Shown here: positions 4,515 to 48,297 of the stretch, one piece after another
Position numbering within the stretch: position 1 is the first letter of the stretch
How the letters are laid out: the number at the start of each line of letters is the position of its first letter
Assembly: GCA_000146465.1 (NCBI GenBank)
Contig: CP001945.1
Reading direction: 5' to 3' (one strand)
Length of the DNA stretch: 64,000 bases
Translations under genes and position numbers: made by a program
The notes under the pieces: generated by a model
Databases searched by the model: none
Seen by the model: the letters and a program-made list of their open reading frames with translations, nothing else
Told to the model about the DNA's origin: nothing

Positions 4515-5483
4515 ATGCTTCTACTTCTTACAATTGTTGGAATAGTGGTCTGCAGGGAAAATGCAGTGATTCTGATTCTCTGTAGGAACAGCGACAAGAA
4601 TGGCATAACAGAAACGATAAAGAATTTCGAAGAGGTGTTCAATAGAAACTTCGGATATCCTTATGTATTTCTGAACGATGAGGAGTTTACCGAGGACTTC
4701 AAGAAAGCTATAAAGGATGTTACATCTAATAGTGTTGAGTTTGGAAGACTCGAGCCCGAGGAGTGGGAGATTCCAAAGTGGATAGATATGGAGAAGGCAA
4801 AGGAGGAAATGAAGAAAATGGAAGACAGGAAAATCATCTATGGAGGGTCTCTATCATACAGGAAGATGTGCAGGTTCTTTTCTGGATTCTTCTACAGGAA
4901 CAAGCTTGTCCAGAAGTATGACTATTATTGGAGGATAGAGCCAGATGTAAAGTTCCTGTGCCAGATAGAGTATGATCCGTTCACATATCTTCGGGAGAAC
5001 AACAAACAGTATGGGTTTGTGATATCCTTGGTTGAGTTTATGGAGACGATTCCCAGTCTGTTTGGAGAGGTGATAAAGTTTGCAACACATAACCTGAACT
5101 TGATCAAAAAGGCCAATGGAAATAGATTCATACTAAACAAGGACGGGTCATACAACGGATGTCATTTTTGGTCCAACTTTGAAATAGCAAACTTTGGATT
5201 CTTTAGAAATGAAACATACCAGAAGTACTTTGATTGGTTAGACAAGGCTGGGGGGTTTTTCTACGAAAGATGGGGTGATGCGCCTGTGCACAGTATTGCA
5301 GCATCTCTCTTCCTGGATAAGGATCAGATCCACTTCTTCAGCGACATTGGGTATGAGCATCCTCCATTCCAGCATTGTCCAAGAGAGGCGTCCATGAGAT
5401 CGAAATGCAAGTGCAGTATTTCGAACTCGTTAGACTTTTCTCCAAATTCGTGTCTGGGCTTGTACATAAAGTCTCTTTTGTGA
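4515..5483 (+). CDS. Alpha-1,2-mannosyltransferase of the KRE2/KTR/MNT1 family (GT15), type II membrane protein
   Basis: N-terminal signal anchor. ILILCRNSD...[22 protein letters not shown] and [23 protein letters not shown]...YYWRIEPDV match Kre2p catalytic-domain motifs. Confidence 0.8.
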
Positions 5484-22783: not shown

Positions 22784-23623
22784 ATGAAAAAGGTTCCTAA
22801 AATATTACTCAAGCTGGTGATTTTTCAAGGAATAATAGTGCTATTTCTTCTTGGAATTCCGTTTTCCATATTTGCTTATCCTCTCTACATATTTAACAGA
22901 CCGCTATGTATTCAACTATCAAGCTTCTTTGCATACACTCTGTGGACCTTGACAAGCTGGATGTTCAATCTATCAAGCACTGTAAATGGTGCCGTTTCCC
23001 TTGGGAACGAAAGTTACTTGGTTATAAGCAACCACTTAGGATCTGTAGATTTCATCCTAATTAATGAAATAACCAGGAAAAGCGGAATGATGGCCCACGC
23101 AAAGTATGCAATTAAGGACGGCCTTCGGATTTTCCCCATATTCTACCAAATCGTTGTTTATCTTGGATTTCTTGTCTTGAAAAGAAGCTTTGAGAAAGAT
23201 AAGAAGAAGATTATAGAATATTTAAGATTTTTCGACGTCTCAAATCTTCCGATATGGTTTGTTCTCTATCCTGAAGGATCCCGATTCACAGAAAAGCTGA
23301 AACTTGAGAGTTGGAGATATTCCGATAAGAAAGGAATGATAAGACTCAACAACGTGCTTTTTCCCAGATACAAAGGATTTAAACTCATATGTGAACAGCT
23401 CCGAAACTCCCGAATAAAGAAGATTGTGGACATCACATTCTCTTATTCGGAGGGAGAGGTTCCTCCCCTGTGGAAGTTTCTTTTTTGGGATACGAAAGGC
23501 TCGTTCAACTGTGACATCAGAACTGTCCTGATCAACGAGATAGATGACTATGAAGAGTTCCTCTACAAGAGCTTTGAGAGGAAAGACCTCCTCATAGAAA
23601 AGTGGAATAGCACAGGAAAGTAA
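22784..23623 (+). CDS. Lysophospholipid acyltransferase (AGPAT/LPLAT family)
   Basis: Acyltransferase motif I NHLGSVDF (NHxxxxD), motif III YPEGSRF, N-terminal TM helices. Confidence 0.65.
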   Translation: MKKVPKILLKLVIFQGIIVLFLLGIPFSIFAYPLYIFNRPLCIQLSSFFAYTLWTLTSWMFNLSSTVNGAVSLGNESYLVISNHLGSVDFILINEITRKSGMMAHAKYAIKDGLRIFPIFYQIVVYLGFLVLKRSFEKDKKKIIEYLRFFDVSNLPIWFVLYPEGSRFTEKLKLESWRYSDKKGMIRLNNVLFPRYKGFKLICEQLRNSRIKKIVDITFSYSEGEVPPLWKFLFWDTKGSFNCDIRTVLINEIDDYEEFLYKSFERKDLLIEKWNSTGK

Positions 23624-34303: not shown

Positions 34304-37300
34304 CTAGACTTTATTATTAAAGAAGTCTACATTGTATATAAGATCGAAAGAGTTTGTCCCGCATTTCACGGGATTTCCCACAGTTATGGAGGCAGAGGGA
34401 TTAGACAATTGATCTTCAAGGTGGAATGCTGCAGCTGTTTTGAAGTTGGAGTAGCAGCTTTCGAAACTCATTTTCTGGATAAGAGAGTCGCCAATTCCAA
34501 GTCCATGCCTACTGAAGGGAGAGTAGTCGCCTTTTCTTGTCATATAGTCAGCTACAAGAAGAAGATGCCGAGCATCAATTGAAATTCCATAGACATCGAA
34601 AACCTTCACTACTTCGTTGATTATAGCATGTCTTGCAGCCTCAATCCCAAGCGTTAGATACACATTGTATATATCATTAGACTCGGAATTGTAGATATCT
34701 AAGAGATCTAGTAGATCCTCATAGACACCGGGAGCCACCTCTATCCTTCCTGTCAAAGAGGAGATGGAAGGGCTTTCTACAAAGAGAGTATTTCCGGAGA
34801 TCGAGGCCTTTTTTATGCCTTTGGTTTCTCTCACCACAACTGTAGGAAGGATAGATTCGATTATTGAGGATATCACTTCGTTAAATCCAGAAGGATACAG
34901 CATCTCAAATGAAAGTATGTTTTTTGACTTCCTTGTAAAGTTTATGAGATTCTCCTCTTCAGTACTGCTTGAGTTATCGGTATGGTCAATTTCGTCAATA
35001 GTCTCGGGATGAGTAGTATCATCACTGTCCTTTTCAGTGTTTTCATTCTCGCTGGTATCTACACATATATAGTCACTCTTTGAATTACTTTCCTCATCAC
35101 TGTCACTCTCATCCTCTTCCTCGTTTTCTTTGTTTTCATCTAGTTCCTTTGAACTATCTTTATTTCCCTCTTCCATTCCTAACTTATATTTTACTTTAGA
35201 TAGCATTTTCAGTTTACTTCCAAGTATCTTCAGGAACTTTCGGTCCAAAGCCTCGCTTGCAAGGTCCACAAAGTTGTCCAGGTCAAACACCATTCTAATT
35301 TTCTTCTGAAAGACCCCGTCAATCATCACAATTTCCTCAGAGACCCTAAATTTCCTGACACAATCTTTCAGTGTTATCTTCTTTAAGCATGTACCAATAT
35401 CAAAATTCAACTTTTTCCTGATAGGAATAGTAACCAAAGGCGTCTTTATGGACTTGGATGCTACCAATAGAATTTCTCTGAGCCTAGGAACTCCAAGAGT
35501 CACGTTCTTTTCTCCTACACCAGCTAGATGAAAGGTGTTGAGAGTCATCTGAGTGGAGGGTTCTCCTATCGACTGTGCAGCTATAATCCCGACAGATTCT
35601 CCTGGGTCGGCTAGAGAGCATACATACCTACTTTCCAGAAATCTCTTAAGCTCTTCGTCAAAAAACTCTATCTCTTTTTTGAACCGAGGAGACAAGAAAT
35701 CTTCGTATCTGTTGCTAAGCTTGAAGGAAGACAAAGATAGCTCCTTAAAGAGAAAGGCATTTCTTCGGAAAAACTCAGGATCGTCCAAATAGCTTGACTT
35801 CGTGCAGTCAAGGCCGTCCTCGCCATAAACAAACTGAACTATCTTTTTCCCAATCCGTGCCGATCTGTCATACTCAACCTTTATCCCCTCCATGTGCTTA
35901 ACTAGGCATCTTTGTAGATATCCGGAATTGGCAGTTTTGATTGCAGTATCAATAAGCCCTTCTCTCCCTGCCATGCAATGGAAAAAATATTGTGATGGAT
36001 TGATACCATCCAAAAAGCCTTGATATATGTACCCTCCAGAGGATGGATCAGGATCCAGCGGCTTGAAGCAAGGCAATGTCTTTCCACTAGCCATCACCGG
36101 GACTCTCCGTCCCTCCAGCTCTTGCTGTCCTAGAGCACCTGAAATCTGGCTCAGATTAACAATCGAACCCTTGGATCCTATCGAAACAATCAATTCCATA
36201 CCGTTGTCCGGAAAACCTTTCTTCAATCCTGAAGGAACGGATGCATTAACTATCTCTGAGGTTATCTTGTTCATTTCTCTTCTCATTATAGAGTCCAAGT
36301 AAGCTTTTTTGTCGTCGCATAAGTAAAAGTCTGGATTCGCTTCCATGTACTCCTTCTGAAGCTCCCTTACCTTCTTGTCTTTGGTTTCCATCACTTTTTT
36401 TCTTTTCGCATTCGCATCATTGCTAAGAATAAGATCATCTGCTCCTATTGTAAACCCATACATTTGAAGATATTTGTTGCAAACTCTTCCTATATATGTT
36501 AGTAGGTCATTCGAGGCTGCAAACCCCCTAATCTCTCCGCAGGCATGGGCTAAGGACTTGAAAGTTGGCCCTATTGAGTTCTTGTCCAAAATCCCTGTAA
36601 TTATATTCCCTTCACTAATTCTTAGAACGCTTTCTTCCGAATGCTCCCTCCATGCGTCTTTTGGAACCTTGGTTTCAATTTCAATATTTAAACCCAGCCC
36701 GAGGTTCTTTATTATTGCTGAGAGCACTTGCTTTCCAGAATAGAGTCTTACAGGCTTGAGAATACAGGGCTTATCTATGGTAATTCGTCTTCCATCCAAT
36801 CCAGAATTCACTAGAGTAAAGTAATCTTCTTCGGAAAAGAACGAGTTTTTCATCGTCAAGATTGCTGCAGCAACAATGTGATCTTGGGTAAGGCCTCTTA
36901 TTGGTTTCCCGTCGGTGGGGACTAGATAGTTGAAGTCATTCATGACAATATGTCTAGCCTCGGCCTCAGCAACATAACTTTGTGGAAAATGAATGTTCAT
37001 CTCATCTCCATCAAAGTCTGCGTTGTAAGATTTACAGTTGGCATAATGCATTCTTAATGTCCTTTCTCCTTTCAGCACCTTGCACTTATGAGCCATAATG
37101 CTTGGTCTATGTAAAGTCGGCTGTCTGTTCACAAGTACCACATCTCCATCCACCAAATGTCTCCAAACAACCTTCTTTCCATCCAGGAGCTGGTTTGCCA
37201 AGGCAAATCTCTTTTCGTCAGGCATGTGGCTTAAACTAAGCATTACATCTCCATCCTGTAGGTATAAACTTCCCGGATAGGTAGATCCATTCACAATAGC

Positions 37301-38485
37301 CTTTTTCAATTTGCTTACATTGAAGCTAGTTACTCTCTCTGGAAATGTCAGAACTTCCGCAAACACAAAAGGAACTCCTATCTCCCGTGTCTCTAGATTA
37401 GGGTCTGGGGATATGACAGTCCTCGCCGCGAAGTTAACTCTCTTTCCCATTATGTTTTTGCGGAACAGCCCTTCCTTCTTTTCAAGAATCTGCTTGTGTC
37501 CCGGTGGCGTTATCAAACCGATATTCCGTTTCCTTAGGTTTGAATTATCAAACGACGAAAGAACAGCACCTTGCAGCTCTGGCCAGTATGAAAGGTCTTT
37601 TTTCACCAATTCATTGATGGTGAGAATGTCGTTAAAGGAAAAAGTCTGAGGATTCGGGGCCTTCTTCTCATTTAAAAAAGACACCGGACGGAATCTATTG
37701 GGTGTGACAGGTATACTTGTCAAAAAGAACATATTCGGGTCTTTTGTAGAGAAGATGGAGCCAATCAAGTCGGCTTCATTGGAAAACAAATCTTCCACAA
37801 GCTCTCTAATAAAATCCGGGAAAAGCAGCTCCGAATCCTTTTCATTCTCACTATTTTCATCATCCCTTTGGAGGGACTTTAATATCTTTATGTTTGTTCC
37901 TTTATAGATCTTTGGATTGGCATGTCCACATCTCACACATTTCTTTTTTGAATTTATACTAGAAAAGAAGTGGCGCACCATCTCCTGGTACTTATCTGTT
38001 GGAGGCCCAGGTCTGTTTTTCCTTGAGGATTCCACTCTCTTACTAACAACACTGTACAGCTCCTCTTCCTCCGAAGTAGCATACAGCTCATCCAAGCCGT
38101 CTATTTCTTCTCCATTTCTAAGAAGAGAGAACTTACAGAACATAATAAGCCGATCATAATTTGTTATTCTAAAGTGCCTGCACTGGAAGCAACAACACCT
38201 AACTAATGAGAGCAGCGAGTCGAAGAATATCGGATTGAAAACAGGCTTAAATAGCTTTATGCGTCCAAAATGTCCTGGGCAGTTTAGAAGCGACAAATTG
38301 CAGGTTTTACAGTTGGACGAGAAGTCTAATGGCCCCATTCTCAAGTCGTACAGGCCTCCACGCACAGGATGCCCGAACTTGTCGAAAGTAGATGGCTCCG
38401 TAACATCCATGCAACTAGCCTGTTCTATTTCCTTTTCAGAGTATACTCCAAACGATATCTTCTTTGGATGAAATTTCATAACCAT
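34304..38485 (-). CDS. DNA-directed RNA polymerase I largest subunit (RPA1/A190)
   Basis: Universal NADFDGDEMNIHFPQS catalytic motif with the Pol I-specific HFPQ variant; zinc-binding N-terminus; large acidic insertion (EEDESDSDEESNS...) typical of A190; no CTD heptads. The track N-terminus (38486-38635) is the reverse complement of tRNA-iMet; real start taken at 38485. Confidence 0.8.
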   Translation of the reverse strand: MVMKFHPKKISFGVYSEKEIEQASCMDVTEPSTFDKFGHPVRGGLYDLRMGPLDFSSNCKTCNLSLLNCPGHFGRIKLFKPVFNPIFFDSLLSLVRCCCFQCRHFRITNYDRLIMFCKFSLLRNGEEIDGLDELYATSEEEELYSVVSKRVESSRKNRPGPPTDKYQEMVRHFFSSINSKKKCVRCGHANPKIYKGTNIKILKSLQRDDENSENEKDSELLFPDFIRELVEDLFSNEADLIGSIFSTKDPNMFFLTSIPVTPNRFRPVSFLNEKKAPNPQTFSFNDILTINELVKKDLSYWPELQGAVLSSFDNSNLRKRNIGLITPPGHKQILEKKEGLFRKNIMGKRVNFAARTVISPDPNLETREIGVPFVFAEVLTFPERVTSFNVSKLKKAIVNGSTYPGSLYLQDGDVMLSLSHMPDEKRFALANQLLDGKKVVWRHLVDGDVVLVNRQPTLHRPSIMAHKCKVLKGERTLRMHYANCKSYNADFDGDEMNIHFPQSYVAEAEARHIVMNDFNYLVPTDGKPIRGLTQDHIVAAAILTMKNSFFSEEDYFTLVNSGLDGRRITIDKPCILKPVRLYSGKQVLSAIIKNLGLGLNIEIETKVPKDAWREHSEESVLRISEGNIITGILDKNSIGPTFKSLAHACGEIRGFAASNDLLTYIGRVCNKYLQMYGFTIGADDLILSNDANAKRKKVMETKDKKVRELQKEYMEANPDFYLCDDKKAYLDSIMRREMNKITSEIVNASVPSGLKKGFPDNGMELIVSIGSKGSIVNLSQISGALGQQELEGRRVPVMASGKTLPCFKPLDPDPSSGGYIYQGFLDGINPSQYFFHCMAGREGLIDTAIKTANSGYLQRCLVKHMEGIKVEYDRSARIGKKIVQFVYGEDGLDCTKSSYLDDPEFFRRNAFLFKELSLSSFKLSNRYEDFLSPRFKKEIEFFDEELKRFLESRYVCSLADPGESVGIIAAQSIGEPSTQMTLNTFHLAGVGEKNVTLGVPRLREILLVASKSIKTPLVTIPIRKKLNFDIGTCLKKITLKDCVRKFRVSEEIVMIDGVFQKKIRMVFDLDNFVDLASEALDRKFLKILGSKLKMLSKVKYKLGMEEGNKDSSKELDENKENEEEDESDSDEESNSKSDYICVDTSENENTEKDSDDTTHPETIDEIDHTDNSSSTEEENLINFTRKSKNILSFEMLYPSGFNEVISSIIESILPTVVVRETKGIKKASISGNTLFVESPSISSLTGRIEVAPGVYEDLLDLLDIYNSESNDIYNVYLTLGIEAARHAIINEVVKVFDVYGISIDARHLLLVADYMTRKGDYSPFSRHGLGIGDSLIQKMSFESCYSNFKTAAAFHLEDQLSNPSASITVGNPVKCGTNSFDLIYNVDFFNNKV

Positions 38486-38566
38486 TTTGAAGAAGGGTCG
38501 TTTTGAGAATGAAATTGAAAATGCAGATAATCCTAGGGAGATGCCGATCTTGATAGGCCATCTTAA

Positions 38567-38639
38567 AGCATGGTGGCGCAATGGAAGCGCGCTGGGCTCA
38601 TAACCCAGAGGTTGTGTGGTTCGAATCCCACCCATGCTA
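38567..38639 (+). tRNA. tRNA-Met (initiator type), anticodon CAT
   Basis: AGCATGGTGGCGCAATGGAAGCGCGCTGGGCTCATAACCCAGAGGTTGTGTGGTTCGAATCCCACCCATGCTA. A1:U72 acceptor end, GGG/CCC anticodon stem, CAT anticodon and GTTCGAATC T-loop closely match eukaryotic initiator tRNA. Confidence 0.85.
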
Positions 38640-38709
38640 GTTTCTTTTCAACCCCTACCCATTAGAGTTCCCCATCTTAAATAGAACTTGACTTTATTAT
38701 AAAATCGAA

Positions 38710-40512
38710 TCAAACATAGACTGTTGTGACAAACTGCTCCTCAGACTCTTTGCACACCTTTCTTTTCTTCCCTTCCACCCCCTTTCTGCAGTTTGGCTTC
38801 TTCTTATATGAGTAAACTGTATTATATACAGTCTTATGGCCTCCCTTGTTTTTTGTTTCTCTCTCCACAGTCTTTACTACTGTTTTTGTCACCGTCTTCA
38901 CCAAGTCACTTGCCATTTCTAAGTGAGAGCTTTGCTTGGGAGTTTTTGTGCATTTTGTTTCTTCCAAATCCTCAATTAACACCTTTCTAACTAATGGAAG
39001 GAGCTCTGCTATTATGTCTTGCCTACCTGTGTTCATAAACCCTTGAGTATCCGATAATGAAGCAGCCACAGAGGAAAAGACCTCTTTCTTTTCCGAAGTC
39101 TCAGGAACACTGACGGTGAGACACTTTTCCGTACATATTAGAGAAATCGAGGCTGGCAAAGAGATACTGGCAGAAACCCCTTCTCCCTTTTGGGATCCAG
39201 GATTTTGGCTTGGGTCACTTCTAGAAGCTGTCTGTGTTGTAACTTCCTCTGTCTTTGTAACCGTAAGGACGGAAACAGTTGGTTTAGTTATTGTTCTATA
39301 TACCACACTAGGAAATTCAGAAGTACTTGGATCACTACTAGAGGAATCTATTGTTTTCGTACTCTTCTGAGTCTCTTCATTCCTTTTCGATGTCTCACCA
39401 GAAATAATTGGAGCTCTCATGGATATACTTTCCTCCGGCACCTTCGGAATTTCCTGGCCATGCGGAGCCTTTGTAGATATGATTGTGGAATACTGCGTCT
39501 GTACAACTGTCTCTGTCTTAACGCTACTCTCTGTCTTGGTTGAGGTTGAAATCTCCTTGACAGTTGTTAGCTTGTAATTGATAATGGGAACTTCACTCTT
39601 GACTGTTGTTGTCACTTCTCTGTACAACGTAATGGGTTTTTCGACACTGACAGTCTTATAAAACACTCGGGTGACTGTCACAACAGTGGGCTCGCCCTTT
39701 TCCTTTTCATCATCTTCAAAACCTTTTTCTGCTTCGGAGACTTCATCTATTTTGTCATCGTCCAGTGAAGAGTCCTTGAGCTTGGAGCGCTTTACTGAAG
39801 AAGAAATAAGGGTAGAGCCCTCCCCTTCCTTTACAGGAGTCTTACGGATATTGTCGTCGTATTTTCTTTGCTTCTCAGGTCTCTCAGAGCGTGTCAATTG
39901 AGAAACCTTTTCTGAAATCACTGGAATCTCCACCGTCTTGAAAATAGTTTTCGTATCCTCTTTTTTAGTTTCACAGGTTTTACCATCCTCGGTCACGTGG
40001 GTATCTTTCTTCTGCTCGTCCCTTGAGATTGTTGCCGGGTGCTCTGAGACCGTCTCCGTCTTTGTTTCAATTACTGTGATGCTTTTATAAGATACTAATG
40101 GTACCTCTTCGGTTTTGGTTGCCGGTGCAGAATTACTCTTATTTGTATCTTTGTGATGGATCACATGAATGAAGGGAATCGGAGGTTCGGAATTCCTTCT
40201 ATATGAATCCATTGGGCCGTTAGAAGGTCCTTCTCTCATCCATTCAAGCTCTTTGCACTCGTCTCTACAATCTTCCTTCCTACAGTTCATGCATTTATTC
40301 ACATCTTTGTAGACAACAGCCATGCACCTTCCTTTGTTACAACTTGAATCGCGCACTATTGGCAAATTAAAGCTCTGAAGATATTCATCGTATTCCCGTT
40401 TGGGAAGATACACGGAGTTCAAGCAGTCGTTCAAACTTATTCCATATCTCTGGCATCTACTCGTTAGCTCGTCCTGGATGGCATAGCATCCCATAATCAT
40501 CAGAATTATCAT
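38710..40512 (-). CDS. Secreted Cys-rich / Thr-Ser-Val-Lys-rich protein; candidate spore-wall or polar-tube-associated protein
   Basis: N-terminal signal peptide (MIILMIMGCYA|IQ); Cys-rich N-terminal module with about 10 Cys; about 350 aa of T/S/V/E/K-rich low-complexity beta-like repeats (TVTKT, TVVKTV); basic Cys-containing C-terminus (KKKPNCRKGVEGKKRKVCK) resembling heparin-binding motifs. Confidence 0.45.
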   Translation of the reverse strand: MIILMIMGCYAIQDELTSRCQRYGISLNDCLNSVYLPKREYDEYLQSFNLPIVRDSSCNKGRCMAVVYKDVNKCMNCRKEDCRDECKELEWMREGPSNGPMDSYRRNSEPPIPFIHVIHHKDTNKSNSAPATKTEEVPLVSYKSITVIETKTETVSEHPATISRDEQKKDTHVTEDGKTCETKKEDTKTIFKTVEIPVISEKVSQLTRSERPEKQRKYDDNIRKTPVKEGEGSTLISSSVKRSKLKDSSLDDDKIDEVSEAEKGFEDDEKEKGEPTVVTVTRVFYKTVSVEKPITLYREVTTTVKSEVPIINYKLTTVKEISTSTKTESSVKTETVVQTQYSTIISTKAPHGQEIPKVPEESISMRAPIISGETSKRNEETQKSTKTIDSSSSDPSTSEFPSVVYRTITKPTVSVLTVTKTEEVTTQTASRSDPSQNPGSQKGEGVSASISLPASISLICTEKCLTVSVPETSEKKEVFSSVAASLSDTQGFMNTGRQDIIAELLPLVRKVLIEDLEETKCTKTPKQSSHLEMASDLVKTVTKTVVKTVERETKNKGGHKTVYNTVYSYKKKPNCRKGVEGKKRKVCKESEEQFVTTVYV

Positions 40513-40623
40513 TGCCGAATAGAATGTTTGTTTGTTCTCCCAGATGCTTGAAATATTTGTGAGGTAGGTTTCACATCTGCTTCAGGCGTTTTAATAAGGG
40601 TAGATGTGCTTGGCGCAATCATA

Positions 40624-40695
40624 GGCTCGGTGGTCTAAGGGTATGATCTCCGCTTTGGGTGCGGAGGGCTCCAGGTTCAAATCCTGGCCGAGCCC
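40624..40695 (+). tRNA. tRNA-Pro, anticodon TGG
   Basis: GGCTCGGTGGTCTAAGGGTATGATCTCCGCTTTGGGTGCGGAGGGCTCCAGGTTCAAATCCTGGCCGAGCCC is nearly identical in architecture to eukaryotic tRNA-Pro, with anticodon loop TTTGGGT. Confidence 0.85.
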
Positions 40696-40780
40696 TTTTA
40701 CCATTCTGCATTGCAAAATACATTTTGGTAAACGATGAGTTTGGATTTCAAGTCTGCAATAATCTTTCTTACATCTCAAT

Positions 40781-40784
40781 CCCC
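40781..40784 (+). promoter_or_regulatory. CCCC motif abutting ATG 40785
   Basis: aatCCCCATGgaa; same start-proximal C-run as at other genes in this window. Confidence 0.35.
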
Positions 40785-41822
40785 ATGGAAGAATACACAC
40801 TCTGCTCCTCAAGTACCGAGCAAGGCGAAATACCAGTCATTCACATCAAAAGATTCAAGGAGGCCCCTCCATTGTTTCCAAGAAACAAGTCTCAGCTGCA
40901 GTATATGTATCTCCCAAACAAGTCCCTATTTATCGGGCCAAACACCATTCCAAGGTCTAGTGATTATCAAGTAAATGTCCTTACAACCAAGCTTAAAAAG
41001 AGACTCAAGCATGATCTTTCTCATCCGTTTCTGTGTCTTTCGATGAATTCCGATAGATCATTCTTTGAAGGGAGGTTTACCTTTGTCTCCACGGTCCAAA
41101 TCCCAGAAAGTGTTGAAGAGATGTGTTTTGTCAAAGGTAAGGAGAGGATAGTTCATGTCAAAGAAAAAACAGATGTAAATACAGACGTGAGAAAAGAAAT
41201 AAAATTCGACCACATAAAGGACAAACAGAACGATTCATACAAAGATGTCTGCCAGGACTTTTTGCTTGGAAAGTTACTTGAAGGCATTGGGGACAAAAAG
41301 ATAAATATCATCATTAGAGACTCCACCATCAATAATATTCTGTCAAAAGAAGCATATATACACTTTTATGTAAAGAAGAAGGATGAAAAACTGTACATTG
41401 TTTTTGACGAAGTTTACACTAGAGAAGTCAAGTATTACGACTATCTCTCGAAGTATGGGGAGGAGGTTGTTCGATCTCTGAAATCTTCGGAAACCCGTAT
41501 GTATTCCAGTTCGGAAGCAGTGGTTGTTGTGTATTCATCAACTCTCTTCTACGATTCCTCTGGGCTTCATAGACTGTTTAGTGGAATTGACGTCGAAAAG
41601 TCCATCGACATGGTGGTAAATATTGAAGATGTAAGAGCTGTAAAAAGCTCAGGATCCTTAGGAGACGAGCTGAAGGTGCTTTTTGGAATTAAGTTTGAGG
41701 AGGGAGAATATGTCCTTAATGATAAGAAGATATATGTGTTGGAGCCAAGCGGGGAAAAGTTTAAATTCAATGGAGTTGTGTTTACTGATTTTATGGACTC
41801 CCAGGAGCCTATAAGCGATTAA
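40785..41822 (+). CDS. Hypothetical protein
   Basis: Track ORF starts with GTG inside tRNA-Pro; first ATG is 40785, preceded by CCCC; 345 aa; unassigned. Confidence 0.35.
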   Translation: MEEYTLCSSSTEQGEIPVIHIKRFKEAPPLFPRNKSQLQYMYLPNKSLFIGPNTIPRSSDYQVNVLTTKLKKRLKHDLSHPFLCLSMNSDRSFFEGRFTFVSTVQIPESVEEMCFVKGKERIVHVKEKTDVNTDVRKEIKFDHIKDKQNDSYKDVCQDFLLGKLLEGIGDKKINIIIRDSTINNILSKEAYIHFYVKKKDEKLYIVFDEVYTREVKYYDYLSKYGEEVVRSLKSSETRMYSSSEAVVVVYSSTLFYDSSGLHRLFSGIDVEKSIDMVVNIEDVRAVKSSGSLGDELKVLFGIKFEEGEYVLNDKKIYVLEPSGEKFKFNGVVFTDFMDSQEPISD

Positions 41823-41849: not shown

Positions 41850-42140
41850 ATGGAAAGCAAAGTAAAGGTGATTTCTTCGGACAACAAGGTGTTTGTTCTT
41901 GACTATGACGTCTCCATACAAAGTCAAACACTTCGAACATTTTTTAGCCGGCCAGAAATGTTCCTAGAATCTATCTCCAGGGAGGTTAAGCTTCCGGTCA
42001 AATCACGGCATCTGAAGAGGATTGTCGAGTTTCTGGAATTTAAGTATCTTTCAGACTCAGATAAGGAACCTAAGGAGTTTAAAGTTAGTGACTCAGAAGC
42101 TTTGGAACTTCTGGATATTGCTGTATATCTCAAAATCTAG
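41850..42140 (+). CDS. Elongin C / Skp1-like BTB-fold protein
   Basis: 96 aa: KVKVISSDNKVFVLDYDVSIQSQTLRTFF...LKRIVEFLEFKY...ALELLDIAVYLKI is collinear with Elongin C (YVKLISSDGHEFIV...ALELLMAANFLD). Confidence 0.55.
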   Translation: MESKVKVISSDNKVFVLDYDVSIQSQTLRTFFSRPEMFLESISREVKLPVKSRHLKRIVEFLEFKYLSDSDKEPKEFKVSDSEALELLDIAVYLKI

Positions 42141-47052: not shown

Positions 47053-48297
47053 TTAGAAGATCTCAGAACGAGCCTGTCCCTCGTAGTCAGAGTCTAGTCT
47101 CTCTCTTTTCATGTAAGTATATATTGGAACAGTCAGACCGTGTATCACTACGCTCAGAAACACTGTGCAGCTTACAAAATCTATCGTAAGAGTCTCTTGG
47201 ATTTTGTCTGTAAGAAGTGCATAGTACAGCGCTCCAACTCCTACAGGCCCAAACCATCCAACAAACAGAGCTTCTCTCCGAGACCTCAGCTCTGGAATTT
47301 GGCGATAGATTAGGTAGCATATGATAGGCCTCCTGACAAAGAGAATGACAAGTGAAACAATTACATTCGACAGCGTAAATCTTCGAAAATCTATTCTTGA
47401 ACCGAAAAATAAGAAGAACGAAGTGCTAAGGACGGTGTCCGTTATTTCTTGGAGATTTGAGTTCTTAGTCTCTAATACAAACCATTCATCAAAGGAAAAC
47501 ATTATTCCCGCGAAGAATATGCATATAAGTTCACTTCCACCGATGAACTCCATAAGTGCTATTGAAAACACAGTAAGAATCACACTGTGGGCAAGAAAGG
47601 ATTCCACACCCACCAGTCTCTTTGTATAGCAGTACTTCAAGCTCTGTCTTGAAAGAATTCCGGCAGAAAGTCCTATCAAAGCGGATAAAAAGACTCTAAT
47701 AAGCAAGTTGTTGACAACAAATGGGTAAATCCCCTTCTCAGGTCCGAGACTAAGCAAGTCAAGTCCAAGGAAGAGAAGGAAAATTCCCATCCCATCGTTT
47801 ATTCCACTCTCTGCTGCAAGGAGCAATCTTATTCTTTCGGGAACCATTTTCATTGCAAGTTTCCCATGTATTATACTGGAGCTGAGAATGGGATCTGTAG
47901 GGGTCAGAGAAGAAGCCAACGACCATGATATTGGCATGTTGTAATTGGTGAAAAGGTATACCAACCCAAAGGAAAACGAGCATTTGATTATGCCTACTAC
48001 GCCAACAAGAACAAATATCGACTGCCATTTCTCAAGTATGTAGTTTTTTGGAAGAGACATCGCAACAGTCATTGTCTGGATACAAAGAACCATTCTTGAA
48101 AAGTTGTACATTATAACCTTCGAATAAACGTAGTTTGTATTGAAGACATTCAATGCATGGTGTCCGAGGATTATCCCTACTAATACCGAAATCAATGACT
48201 CTGATAGAAGCAGGTTGTTCTTAACATGCTTTGAGACTAGTCCAAAGAGAAGAACAAACGACGAGGAAGCAAGCAGCAATACGAAGATATCATCCAT
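47053..48297 (-). CDS. Na+/H+ (cation/proton) antiporter, CPA1/NHE family
   Basis: About 12 TM helices; LLAAESGINDGMGIFL matches the NHE ion-binding motif (ESG.NDG). Confidence 0.65.
   Translation of the reverse strand: MDDIFVLLLASSSFVLLFGLVSKHVKNNLLLSESLISVLVGIILGHHALNVFNTNYVYSKVIMYNFSRMVLCIQTMTVAMSLPKNYILEKWQSIFVLVGVVGIIKCSFSFGLVYLFTNYNMPISWSLASSLTPTDPILSSSIIHGKLAMKMVPERIRLLLAAESGINDGMGIFLLFLGLDLLSLGPEKGIYPFVVNNLLIRVFLSALIGLSAGILSRQSLKYCYTKRLVGVESFLAHSVILTVFSIALMEFIGGSELICIFFAGIMFSFDEWFVLETKNSNLQEITDTVLSTSFFLFFGSRIDFRRFTLSNVIVSLVILFVRRPIICYLIYRQIPELRSRREALFVGWFGPVGVGALYYALLTDKIQETLTIDFVSCTVFLSVVIHGLTVPIYTYMKRERLDSDYEGQARSEIF

Follow-up and report, generated by a model that had tools for sequence, protein, structure and literature searches.

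Eint_041410 of Encephalitozoon intestinalis belongs to a microsporidia-wide protein family and is a candidate component of the spore wall or polar tube

The microsporidian proteins SWP1 and SWP2 are secreted at the spore stage. In them, a conserved N-terminal domain that contains Cys precedes a variable region of low complexity. EnP1 is a protein of about 350 aa with Cys residues spread throughout. The polar-tube proteins PTP1 and PTP2, as well as PTP7 of A. algerae (AaPTP7), have short signal peptides, an insolubility that depends on Cys, many potential O-glycosylation sites and late induction. Among fungi, wall proteins and adhesins of the Als/Flo type combine a signal peptide and a folded, Cys-containing N-terminal head with a Thr/Ser/Val-rich stalk that is prone to O-mannosylation. 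Here, we analyse a stretch of 64,000 nucleotides (the window) from chromosome IV of Encephalitozoon intestinalis ATCC 50506 (NCBI GenBank assembly GCA_000146465.1, contig CP001945.1), and in it the gene Eint_041410, which encodes a protein of 600 aa on the minus strand between two tRNA genes. The gene and both tRNAs were annotated beforehand. New is the recognition that the protein belongs to a microsporidia-wide family outside Pfam that is induced late in infection. We consider Eint_041410 to be a secreted structural spore protein, induced at sporogony and probably O-mannosylated and disulfide-bonded, with a probability of about 0.5. It may reasonably be regarded as a candidate, still unproven, for a new component of the spore wall or polar tube.

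Eint_041410 resembles these systems in part. With EnP1 it shares specificity for microsporidia, a signal peptide (putative in Eint_041410), a high Cys content, basic clusters of the heparin-binding type and a poor AlphaFold prediction. EnP1 and SWP1, which we take to be ECU01_0820 and ECU10_1660 of E. cuniculi (gene names in agreement with the fold changes quoted in PMC3629993), can also be compared with the orthologue ECU04_1410 by expression. EnP1 and ECU04_1410 both show a 2.6-fold induction from 24 to 72 h, but EnP1 is expressed about 170 times more. Eint_041410 differs from EnP1 in its compact four-Cys head and long Thr/Ser-rich body, and no protein named EnP1 is found among the named hits of the family profile. 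The features listed above for PTP1, PTP2 and AaPTP7 recur, in part as predictions, in Eint_041410, whereas PTP1 is Pro-rich and acidic. AaPTP7 (WAQ68440), reported to be without homologues, is likewise Thr-rich and contains Cys, and was considered as a relative. It was rejected, as its N-terminus (MILFGIYVIITTVQGKIENTVVK...) has no RC...C head domain and the TLYRE motif does not occur in the (incomplete) sequences. The most abundant "unknown" of the A. algerae polar tubes, a 659-aa protein with a signal peptide, proved to be the Hsp70 of the endoplasmic reticulum (ER). The SWP1 and SWP2 proteins of E. intestinalis correspond to Eint_041410 in the succession of a Cys-containing N-terminal domain and a variable region, and SWP1 in the extent of its induction (2.67x). 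However, the C-terminal regions of SWPs are Gly/Ser-rich tandem repeats, and SWP1 and SWP2 are limited to Encephalitozoonidae, whereas the DNA of Eint_041410 is free of tandem repeats, its protein shows no more than a weak cryptic repeat, and the family extends across the phylum. The likeness to the Als/Flo type, which extends to short beta-prone T/V/I segments, is by analogy only; none of 71 family members has a Pfam adhesin domain, and Eint_041410 has neither a glycosylphosphatidylinositol (GPI) signal nor tandem repeats.

Architecture and distribution of the family

The translation of Eint_041410 is an exact match to NCBI ADM11429.1, named "uncharacterized protein Eint_041410". Word-indexed searches were made with the protein alone and with profiles of 12 and 71 sequences, and all three recovered only the Encephalitozoon/Ordospora clade and two distant hits, Spraguea SLOPH_1706 and one other, all labelled "hypothetical". 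Within the clade, one orthologue per species was found in E. hellem, E. cuniculi, E. romaleae and Ordospora, together with several Logan/JGI sequences, and the gene is single-copy in the Encephalitozoon and Ordospora genomes sampled. An exhaustive search with a hidden Markov model over 1.84 billion representatives was needed to see the whole family. It returned 67 cluster representatives, 52 of them below 1e-10 and 18 below 1e-30, and added named members from Nosema granulosis, Antonospora locustae, Astathelohania contejeani and Pancytospora philotis, none of which is characterised. Eight microsporidian genera are represented among the named members. These number ten and are labelled hypothetical or uncharacterised, with the exception of one automated UniRef label ("Zonadhesin"). 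A Pfam scan of the target and all 71 aligned members gave no family and no fused domain, and a search of Protein Data Bank (PDB) sequences with the family profiles gave no match.

Members share an architecture of four parts, a hydrophobic leader, a head, a central block and a tail, joined by fast-evolving Thr/Ser-rich linkers. The head follows the consensus RC-x9-C-x-NS-x-Y-x-P-x3-YD-x-YL-x-SFN-x-PI-x2-D-x2-C-x4-C, and in an alignment of 44 heads the four Cys (C9, C19, C47 and C52 of the alignment) are the only invariant columns. The central block reads (V/I)T(V/L)TR…T-x-TV-E-x-P(I/V)TLYRE-x-TTT…P(I/V)INYK(V/I)TT, and most of the 67 representatives carry its PxTLYRE motif; P293, T295, L296, Y297, R298 and E299 of Eint_041410 are invariant in the 12-sequence alignment. 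The tail, KTV(Y/I)NT(I/V)Y-x-YKKK-x2-C … TTVY(V/A), lies at or close to the C-terminus, with Y563, T565, C575 and G581 invariant. In Eint_041410 (Table 1), five residues dominate the composition (T 11.3%, S 11.2%, K 11.0%, E 10.3%, V 9.3%; T+S 22.5%). Fourteen of its 15 Cys follow the leader, and eight lie between residues 20 and 86. Residues 501–600 carry a net charge of +9, and the last 60 residues have an isoelectric point (pI) of 9.9. The first-pass annotation, made from the DNA letters of the window, had described a protein with a signal peptide, a Cys-rich head, a T/S/V/K/E body and a basic Cys-containing tail. The composition stands as described, and the signal peptide is supported by heuristics and family comparison.

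Conservation is confined to islands, with identities of 0.8–0.9 against 0.16–0.35 in the linkers. Overall identity to the E. romaleae orthologue is 62%, compared with 73–81% for five neighbouring genes. The full-length AlphaFold2 (AF2) model has a mean predicted local distance difference test (pLDDT) score of 33, and secondary structure is predicted only at the conserved islands. The highest pLDDT of this model is in the tail, modelled as two strands around a basic loop. The head is modelled as small and helical (pLDDT 63), and no analogue of it was found in the PDB. With respect to possible ligands, the scan for heparin-binding consensus sequences gave a single XBBXBX match (VKRSKL, residues 240–245) that is conserved only within Encephalitozoon, and the basic cluster at the C-terminus departs from the classical consensus. 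Neither Pfam nor structural-family comparison of Eint_041410 gave a match to the chitin-binding modules CBM14 and CBM18 (hevein).

Repeat analysis of the 600-aa protein, which had been suggested as a check, was negative for tandem repeats, with no Tandem Repeats Finder array at a minimum score of 30 in the DNA. It yielded only a weak dispersed motif, E-Φ-P-x-Φ-x-Y-K/R-x-Φ-T, at residues 136–149, 307–320 and 396–409. Its best-scoring pair reaches 42, whereas shuffled sequences of the same composition give a 95th percentile of 38 and a maximum of 47, so that the excess over these controls is marginal. The copies read EVPLVSYKSITV, EVPIINYKLTTV and EFPSVVYRTIT, the first being carried by the island at residues 141–160. 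An ancient duplication of a short beta unit is suggested as the origin of the protein body.

Secretion of Eint_041410 is, on sequence grounds, probable. Residues 1–12 are the only strongly hydrophobic segment, have the highest hydropathy in the protein and lie at its true N-terminus, which ranks 4th in hydrophobicity among the 41 large open reading frames (ORFs) of the window, in the same top group as a KTR Golgi enzyme. Outside the leader, the maximum 19-residue Kyte-Doolittle hydropathy is 1.17, and therefore no internal transmembrane helix is expected. The C-terminus (...EEQFVTTVYV) has no HDEL/KDEL and no hydrophobic tail as needed for a GPI signal. Orthologues keep a (C/Y)-x-A/(I/M)-Q junction at the putative cleavage site, with A at -1 and C, L, I or Y at -3, compatible with the -3/-1 rule. 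Nearly all full-length members have a hydrophobic leader of unrelated sequence whose end is only a few residues away from the first conserved Cys. Several of these resemble canonical signal peptides with basic n-regions, e.g. MKKTLLLSLVLVTA and MRRRWLFLGCACIALLFPCAGA. The pairing of invariant Cys seen in the alignments fits an oxidising compartment. What keeps us from calling secretion certain is the putative leader of Eint_041410 itself, which at 11–12 residues and without a basic n-region is unusually short and stands at the extreme of such sequences. Signal peptides of 13–15 aa are predicted in AaPTP4, AaPTP7 and AaPTP3b, and SignalP has been reported to under-call microsporidian signal peptides.

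A divergent sub-family of 455–525 aa with the same head domain was seen in contigs assembled by Logan from the Sequence Read Archive (P0069, P0073, P0075, P0080, P0081, P0087, P0090 and P0091; locus L004, positions 927–2357). Its central motif is ITIPYSTV…VNTVDNYITET…TETISDHVERTKFSTVY, its C-terminus is Cys-rich and ends in …VIKTVYVRA, and in L004 the gene has no adjacent tRNA.

Late expression and possible functions

In the E. cuniculi RNA-seq data of Grisdale et al. (PMC3629993, Additional file 1), ECU04_1410 is transcribed at 54.1, 124.8 and 140.4 fragments per kilobase per million (FPKM) at 24, 48 and 72 h. The 72 h/24 h ratio of 2.60x ranks 9th of 324 (top 2.8%; median 0.87) within one contiguous block of 324 expressed genes of the table. 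Known SWP, EnP and PTP genes rise 1.6–4.9x over the same interval, with SWP1 at 2.67x, EnP1 at 2.60x, PTP3 at 2.86x, PTP4 at 2.10x, PTP1 at 4.07x and PTP2 at 4.85x. The genes adjoining ECU04_1410 do not rise: the FPKM of the largest subunit of RNA polymerase I (Pol I) are 77, 60 and 56, and those of ECU04_1420 are 203, 178 and 164. The shift in expression was read by the source authors as the onset of spore formation (PMC3629993). Secreted proteins are over-represented in the late clusters of single-cell data from E. intestinalis; for 28 of them, poor AlphaFold models and a lack of any clear similarity were reported. Stronger induction than that of ECU04_1410 is seen in the E. cuniculi table for ECU05_0210 (4.4x), ECU03_1505 (4.2x), ECU04_0715 (3.6x) and ECU03_1510 (3.5x), which may be more uncharacterised spore-stage genes.

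A scheme can be proposed for how a structural spore protein of this kind would be made and used. The short signal peptide of 11–12 residues would direct entry into the ER. With its four invariant Cys, the aromatic-rich head of about 60 residues would form two or more disulfides, and the 135 Ser/Thr of the extended body would be O-mannosylated by PMT and KTR enzymes; PMT-type enzymes were reported as up-regulated late in the single-cell study of E. intestinalis. The beta islands and the C-terminal hairpin with its basic Cys loop may fold only on assembly, and then dock or cross-link partner proteins or polysaccharide, with the fast-evolving linkers as spacers between contact sites.

A number of observations weigh against assigning Eint_041410 to the structural proteins of the spore. 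The expression data were obtained on the E. cuniculi orthologue and not on E. intestinalis itself, and the absolute expression of ECU04_1410 is moderate: at 72 h it stands at the 56th percentile, 4–160 times below that of known PTP and SWP genes. In the exhaustive profile search, the 67 proteins were dominated by the architecture of the family itself, with no homology to a known SWP, PTP or EnP family. None of the ten named hits bears such a name, and for the mostly unnamed representatives the absence of these families is concluded from architecture, not from labels. The likeness to spore-wall and polar-tube proteins that the first-pass annotation had seen in the composition is one of secreted structural proteins, joined by an induction like that of SWP1, EnP1 and PTPs, and not one of detectable homology. 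Published proteomics of spore fractions lend no support in the tables examined for Spraguea, A. algerae and E. hellem: SLOPH_1706 occurs only in the OrthoMCL table of Spraguea and not in its spore-proteome or germination-secretome tables, the family motif was not found in the sequences from mass spectrometry of purified A. algerae polar tubes (which are incomplete in the file), and the supplements of the proteomic papers on E. hellem PTP4 and SSP1 gave no match. Locus tags and accessions of the family are not mentioned in the literature searched.

Eint_041410 could specifically be a polar-tube or anchoring-disc protein, an unrecognised PTP held by disulfides through head and tail Cys like PTP1, PTP2 and AaPTP7 and O-mannosylated like PTP1. 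Its short putative signal peptide, its Cys and its Thr content recall AaPTP7, which has 11% Thr, a 15-aa signal peptide and is extracted only with dithiothreitol. Induction is close to that of PTP3 and PTP4, and published work has linked late-cluster secreted proteins of E. intestinalis to polar-tube biogenesis and found hypothetical proteins with signal peptides in PTP3 pull-downs. We nevertheless regard this as rather unlikely in view of the lack of homology to AaPTP7 and of the family motif in the A. algerae polar-tube sequences, an expression well under that of PTP1–4, and an induction that is nearest to SWP1, EnP1 and PTP3 and far below PTP1 and PTP2. Because induction is closer to SWP1 and EnP1 than to PTP1 and PTP2, the spore wall appears somewhat likelier than the polar tube. 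The likeliest site would be the endospore layer of the wall or the place where it adjoins the plasma membrane or polar tube, followed by the polar tube or anchoring region.

More distant readings place the protein outside the spore or inside the cell. As a secreted effector or vacuole-matrix protein it would be released into the parasitophorous vacuole or host cell, with the conserved basic tail (KKKP-x10-KKRK) as a bipartite nuclear-localisation-like or glycosaminoglycan-binding signal. The signal-peptide-like leader, the KKK and KKRK clusters about 10 residues apart, the faster evolution than in neighbouring genes and the reported dual activity of EnP1, in wall and host, would all agree with this. 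It is improbable, however, since such proteins are usually lineage-specific and in expanded families, whereas Eint_041410 is single-copy and kept across microsporidia of very different hosts. Moreover, a structural role is indicated by the position of the basic tail within a Cys-bracketed, hairpin-like motif, where conserved Tyr/Thr/Val strands flank it, and SLOPH_1706 is missing from the Spraguea germination secretome. If, on the other hand, the N-terminal hydrophobicity were incidental, Eint_041410 would be an intracellular, largely disordered factor with a basic tail, e.g. nuclear or chromatin-associated. A leader of this length without a positive n-region, a tail resembling a bipartite nuclear-localisation signal, the disorder predicted by AF2, and the M7 start of an automated gene call, which would cut half of the leader, are compatible with such a factor. 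Even so, we find it hard to believe: a hydrophobic leader is kept family-wide despite the lack of sequence conservation, several leaders are canonical signal peptides, all Encephalitozoon and Ordospora orthologues have the same M-I-I-L start, the invariant paired Cys are typical of oxidising compartments, and late induction is as for secreted spore proteins. We therefore retain the secreted structural spore protein as the best explanation.

The tRNA bracket and neighbouring gene models

Both tRNA genes had been placed in the first-pass annotation, and covariance-model search and ARAGORN agree on their identity and coordinates (Table 1). The matches span positions 1–71 of the Rfam model RF00005 in full and score well above its gathering threshold of 29 bits. 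ARAGORN finds exactly two tRNA genes within the 64 kb, and the rest of the window has no other match above any Rfam threshold. The assignment of the tRNA-Met as initiator is supported in part. The sequence starts with AGCAUGG and ends with CCAUGCU-A, giving A1:U72 at the end of the acceptor stem, and the anticodon stem, CUGGG-CUCAUAA-CCCAG, has the G29–G31:C39–C41 stack. Both features are invariant in the E. intestinalis, E. romaleae, Ordospora and Spraguea copies. On the other hand, the T-loop is UUCGAAU, with U54 and U60, in all four species. The initiator T-loop of yeast, plants and vertebrates is AUCGAAA, with A54 and A60, and the T-loop in the four species compared is thus elongator-like. 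We accept the tRNA as initiator because of A1:U72 and the three G:C pairs, on which the assignment rests. A single bulged U in the 5´ strand of the T-stem is found in E. intestinalis and E. romaleae, and not in Ordospora or Spraguea.

Table 1. Features of the Eint_041410 locus and of other parts of the window. L numbers are handles for loci.
Feature	Coordinates	Strand	Basis or remark
CDS (coding sequence) Eint_041410	38710..40512	-	600 aa + stop; translated part 38713-40512; ORF listing
Putative signal peptide, residues 1-11 (MIILMIMGCYA/IQ)	40480..40512	-	hydropathy heuristics and family comparison
Cys-rich head, residues 15-92	40237..40470	-	C20, C30, C58, C63 invariant; C-x2-C-x4-C-x3-C in addition
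Conserved beta island, residues 141-160 (SYKSITVIETKTETVSE)	40033..40092	-	0.80 clade identity; predicted strand 146-155
Central signature block, residues 276-340 (VVTVTRVFYKTVSVEKPITLYREVTTTVKSEVPIINYKLTTV...)	39493..39687	-	identity 0.72-0.89; predicted beta hairpins
Conserved beta island, residues 401-420 (PSVVYRTITKPTVSVLTVTK)	39253..39312	-	0.62 identity; third cryptic-repeat copy
Conserved amphipathic helix, residues 497-518 (RQDIIAELLPLVRKVLIED)	38959..39024	-	0.68 identity; predicted helix 498-516
Basic Cys-containing tail, residues 558-600 (KTVYNTVYSYKKKPNCRKGVEGKKRKVCK...VTTVYV)	38713..38841	-	pI 9.9; invariant residues
AATAAA, likely polyadenylation signal	38693..38698	-	14 nt past the Eint_041410 stop, before the tRNA-Met gene; sequence reading
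tRNA-Met(CAU), initiator type	38567..38639	+	ARAGORN; Rfam RF00005 67.9 bits
tRNA-Pro(UGG)	40624..40695	+	ARAGORN; Rfam RF00005 54.3 bits
tRNA-Pro / gene / tRNA-Met block	window 38567-40695; L001 5819-7949; L002 5772-7944; L003 2168-5887; L006 4715-7716; L008 4855-6422		
RNA polymerase I largest subunit (RPA190)	34304..38485	-	1393 aa, true CDS
Spurious 50-codon Pol I ORF extension	38486..38635	-	only 38567-38635 antisense to tRNA-Met
Eint_041430, uncharacterised	40785..41822	+	345 aa; no Pfam domain
Spurious GTG-initiated extension of Eint_041430	40659..40784	+	first 37 nt inside tRNA-Pro
KTR-family alpha-1,2-mannosyltransferase (GT15)	4515..5483	+	PF01793; unlinked, context only

The intergenic spacers are short. 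From the 3´ end of tRNA-Met to the stop codon of Eint_041410 there are 70 nt, from the Eint_041410 ATG to the 5´ end of tRNA-Pro 111 nt, from the Pol I ATG to tRNA-Met 81 nt, and from tRNA-Pro to the ATG of Eint_041430 89 nt. T-runs occur 3´ of both tRNAs, with TTTT directly after tRNA-Pro. The 600-aa ORF proposed between the tRNAs is present as described. Its start is well defined, as the frame ahead of M1 is interrupted by a stop codon and contains no ATG, and all Encephalitozoon and Ordospora orthologues start with M-I/V-I-L/M at the same position; for E. cuniculi, an old 620-aa model has now been replaced by one of 602 aa. In E. intestinalis, in-frame "translation" of the upstream region (40513-40566, minus strand) gives …LTNISSIWENKQTFYSA, without an ATG, which closely resembles the 18-residue N-terminal extension MPTNISSTGENKQTFLSA of the superseded E. 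cuniculi model. The sequence of the promoter or 5´ untranslated region is therefore conserved between the two species at the nucleotide level. This region of Eint_041410 contains AAATATTT and GGGAG elements.

The arrangement is old. A divergent tRNA-Pro(UGG) just upstream of the orthologue is found in E. romaleae, Ordospora colligata, Spraguea lophii, Astathelohania contejeani and an Antonospora-like contig, and tRNA-Met(CAU) lies downstream of it in E. romaleae, Ordospora, Spraguea and Astathelohania. In Spraguea, two genes intervene between the orthologue and tRNA-Met. The Pol I gene is next in E. romaleae, Ordospora, Astathelohania and Pancytospora, and in E. cuniculi the tags ECU04_1405 and ECU04_1415, with near-zero FPKM, stand on both sides of ECU04_1410. 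Both tRNAs are absent from the loci of Nosema granulosis and Pancytospora and from L004. As the block is shared from Encephalitozoon to Astathelohania, the bracket is inherited and not special to the window, and the tRNA genes are ordinary genes of RNA polymerase III (Pol III) that stand beside Eint_041410 by ancient synteny. One might suppose instead that the bracket is functional, with the Pol III genes as boundaries or insulators, or as regulators of the divergent RNA polymerase II promoters of Eint_041410 and Pol I, so that linkage was kept. The head-to-head position of tRNA-Pro in this range of genera, its persistence with the gene in Spraguea although the flanking protein genes differ, and spacers of just 70–111 nt would speak for such a role. 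We consider it very improbable, because the gene remains in Nosema granulosis, Pancytospora and L004 where linkage is lost, and because a stable gene order is enough to explain the pattern; gene order in microsporidia is unusually stable.

The tRNA genes also bear on the reading frames next to them. The long Pol I ORF (34304-38635, 1443 aa) starts 50 codons upstream of the true start. The first-pass annotation took these codons to be simply the reverse complement of the tRNA-Met gene, which is overstated: 69 of the 150 nt (23 of the 50 codons) are antisense to the tRNA, and the remaining 81 nt are spacer. The Pfam domain Rpb1_1 (Rpb1 domain 1) starts at residue 58 of the 1443-aa ORF, the NCBI protein has 1393 aa and starts from M51, and the 1443-aa form is absent from the protein collection. 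The identification of this neighbour as Pol I was correct, with RPA1/RPA190 as best match (868 bits vs 565 for Rpb1 and 526 for RPC1) and five Pfam domains, Rpb1 domains 1–5. Likewise, the 387-aa ORF at 40659 does begin with a GTG inside tRNA-Pro, as had been noted, whereas the NCBI start of Eint_041430 is ATG 40785, giving 345 aa. Both extensions are artefacts of bacterial-style ORF rules. The expectation that automated annotation would over-extend both genes is borne out for prokaryote-style callers, as an automated Logan call (P0030) carries the 387-aa GTG version, but the NCBI reference is already correct. Logan calling also put the Eint_041410 start at M7, giving 594 aa. The value of this finding is practical only: prokaryote-style callers mis-start genes beside tRNAs in compact genomes, as in the one Logan call of Eint_041430.

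The remaining features of the window are context. The products of neighbouring genes are identical to NCBI ADM11428.1, ADM11430.1 and ADM11400.1. A KTR gene was correctly recognised in the first-pass annotation (PF01793, E = 3.1e-115, profile positions 54–325 of 325; NCBI name "KTR mannosyltransferase"). Its mention there in connection with Eint_041410 has no specific basis, the two being 33 kb apart in a genome of about 2.3 Mb, and the gene is relevant only as a sign that the O-mannosylation pathway exists. Two further ORFs, 22784-23623 (+) and 47053-48297 (-), have strongly hydrophobic N-termini (MKKVPKILLKLVIFQGIIVLFLLG… and MDDIFVLLLASSSFVLLFGLVSKH…) and may likewise encode proteins of membranes or of the secretory pathway. 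Small ORFs of 97–100 aa with weak or faint Skp1_POZ matches lie upstream in the vicinity of the family gene in Nosema granulosis (L005, 4258-4560), Astathelohania (L006, 4389-4691) and the Antonospora-like contig (L008, 1750-2043). The 96-aa ORF at the corresponding place in the window (41850-42140, +) has no Pfam match at E <= 0.01.

Meaning for the microsporidian invasion apparatus

In conclusion, the Eint_041410 family is a good experimental candidate and not a surprise. A more far-reaching and doubtful proposal is that Eint_041410 is the founding member of an ancient single-copy family whose four-Cys, Tyr/Phe-rich head is a new glycan-binding (chitin/mannan) or protein-docking module, and which forms an overlooked core element of the spore wall or invasion apparatus. 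If true, its conservation would be comparable to that of PTP3, and it would be a target for phylum-wide diagnostics or intervention. Conservation throughout Microsporidia is rare among proteins of the spore wall and polar tube. Most occur in a single lineage only, and the invasion apparatus is therefore hard to compare between species. A secreted-looking protein that is single-copy in the genomes sampled, is induced at sporogony and carries signature motifs in at least eight genera, while having been absent from Pfam and the literature searched, provides a concrete and cheap candidate for such comparisons. The family is suited to antibody localisation and to the re-examination of existing proteomic, cross-linking and single-cell datasets.

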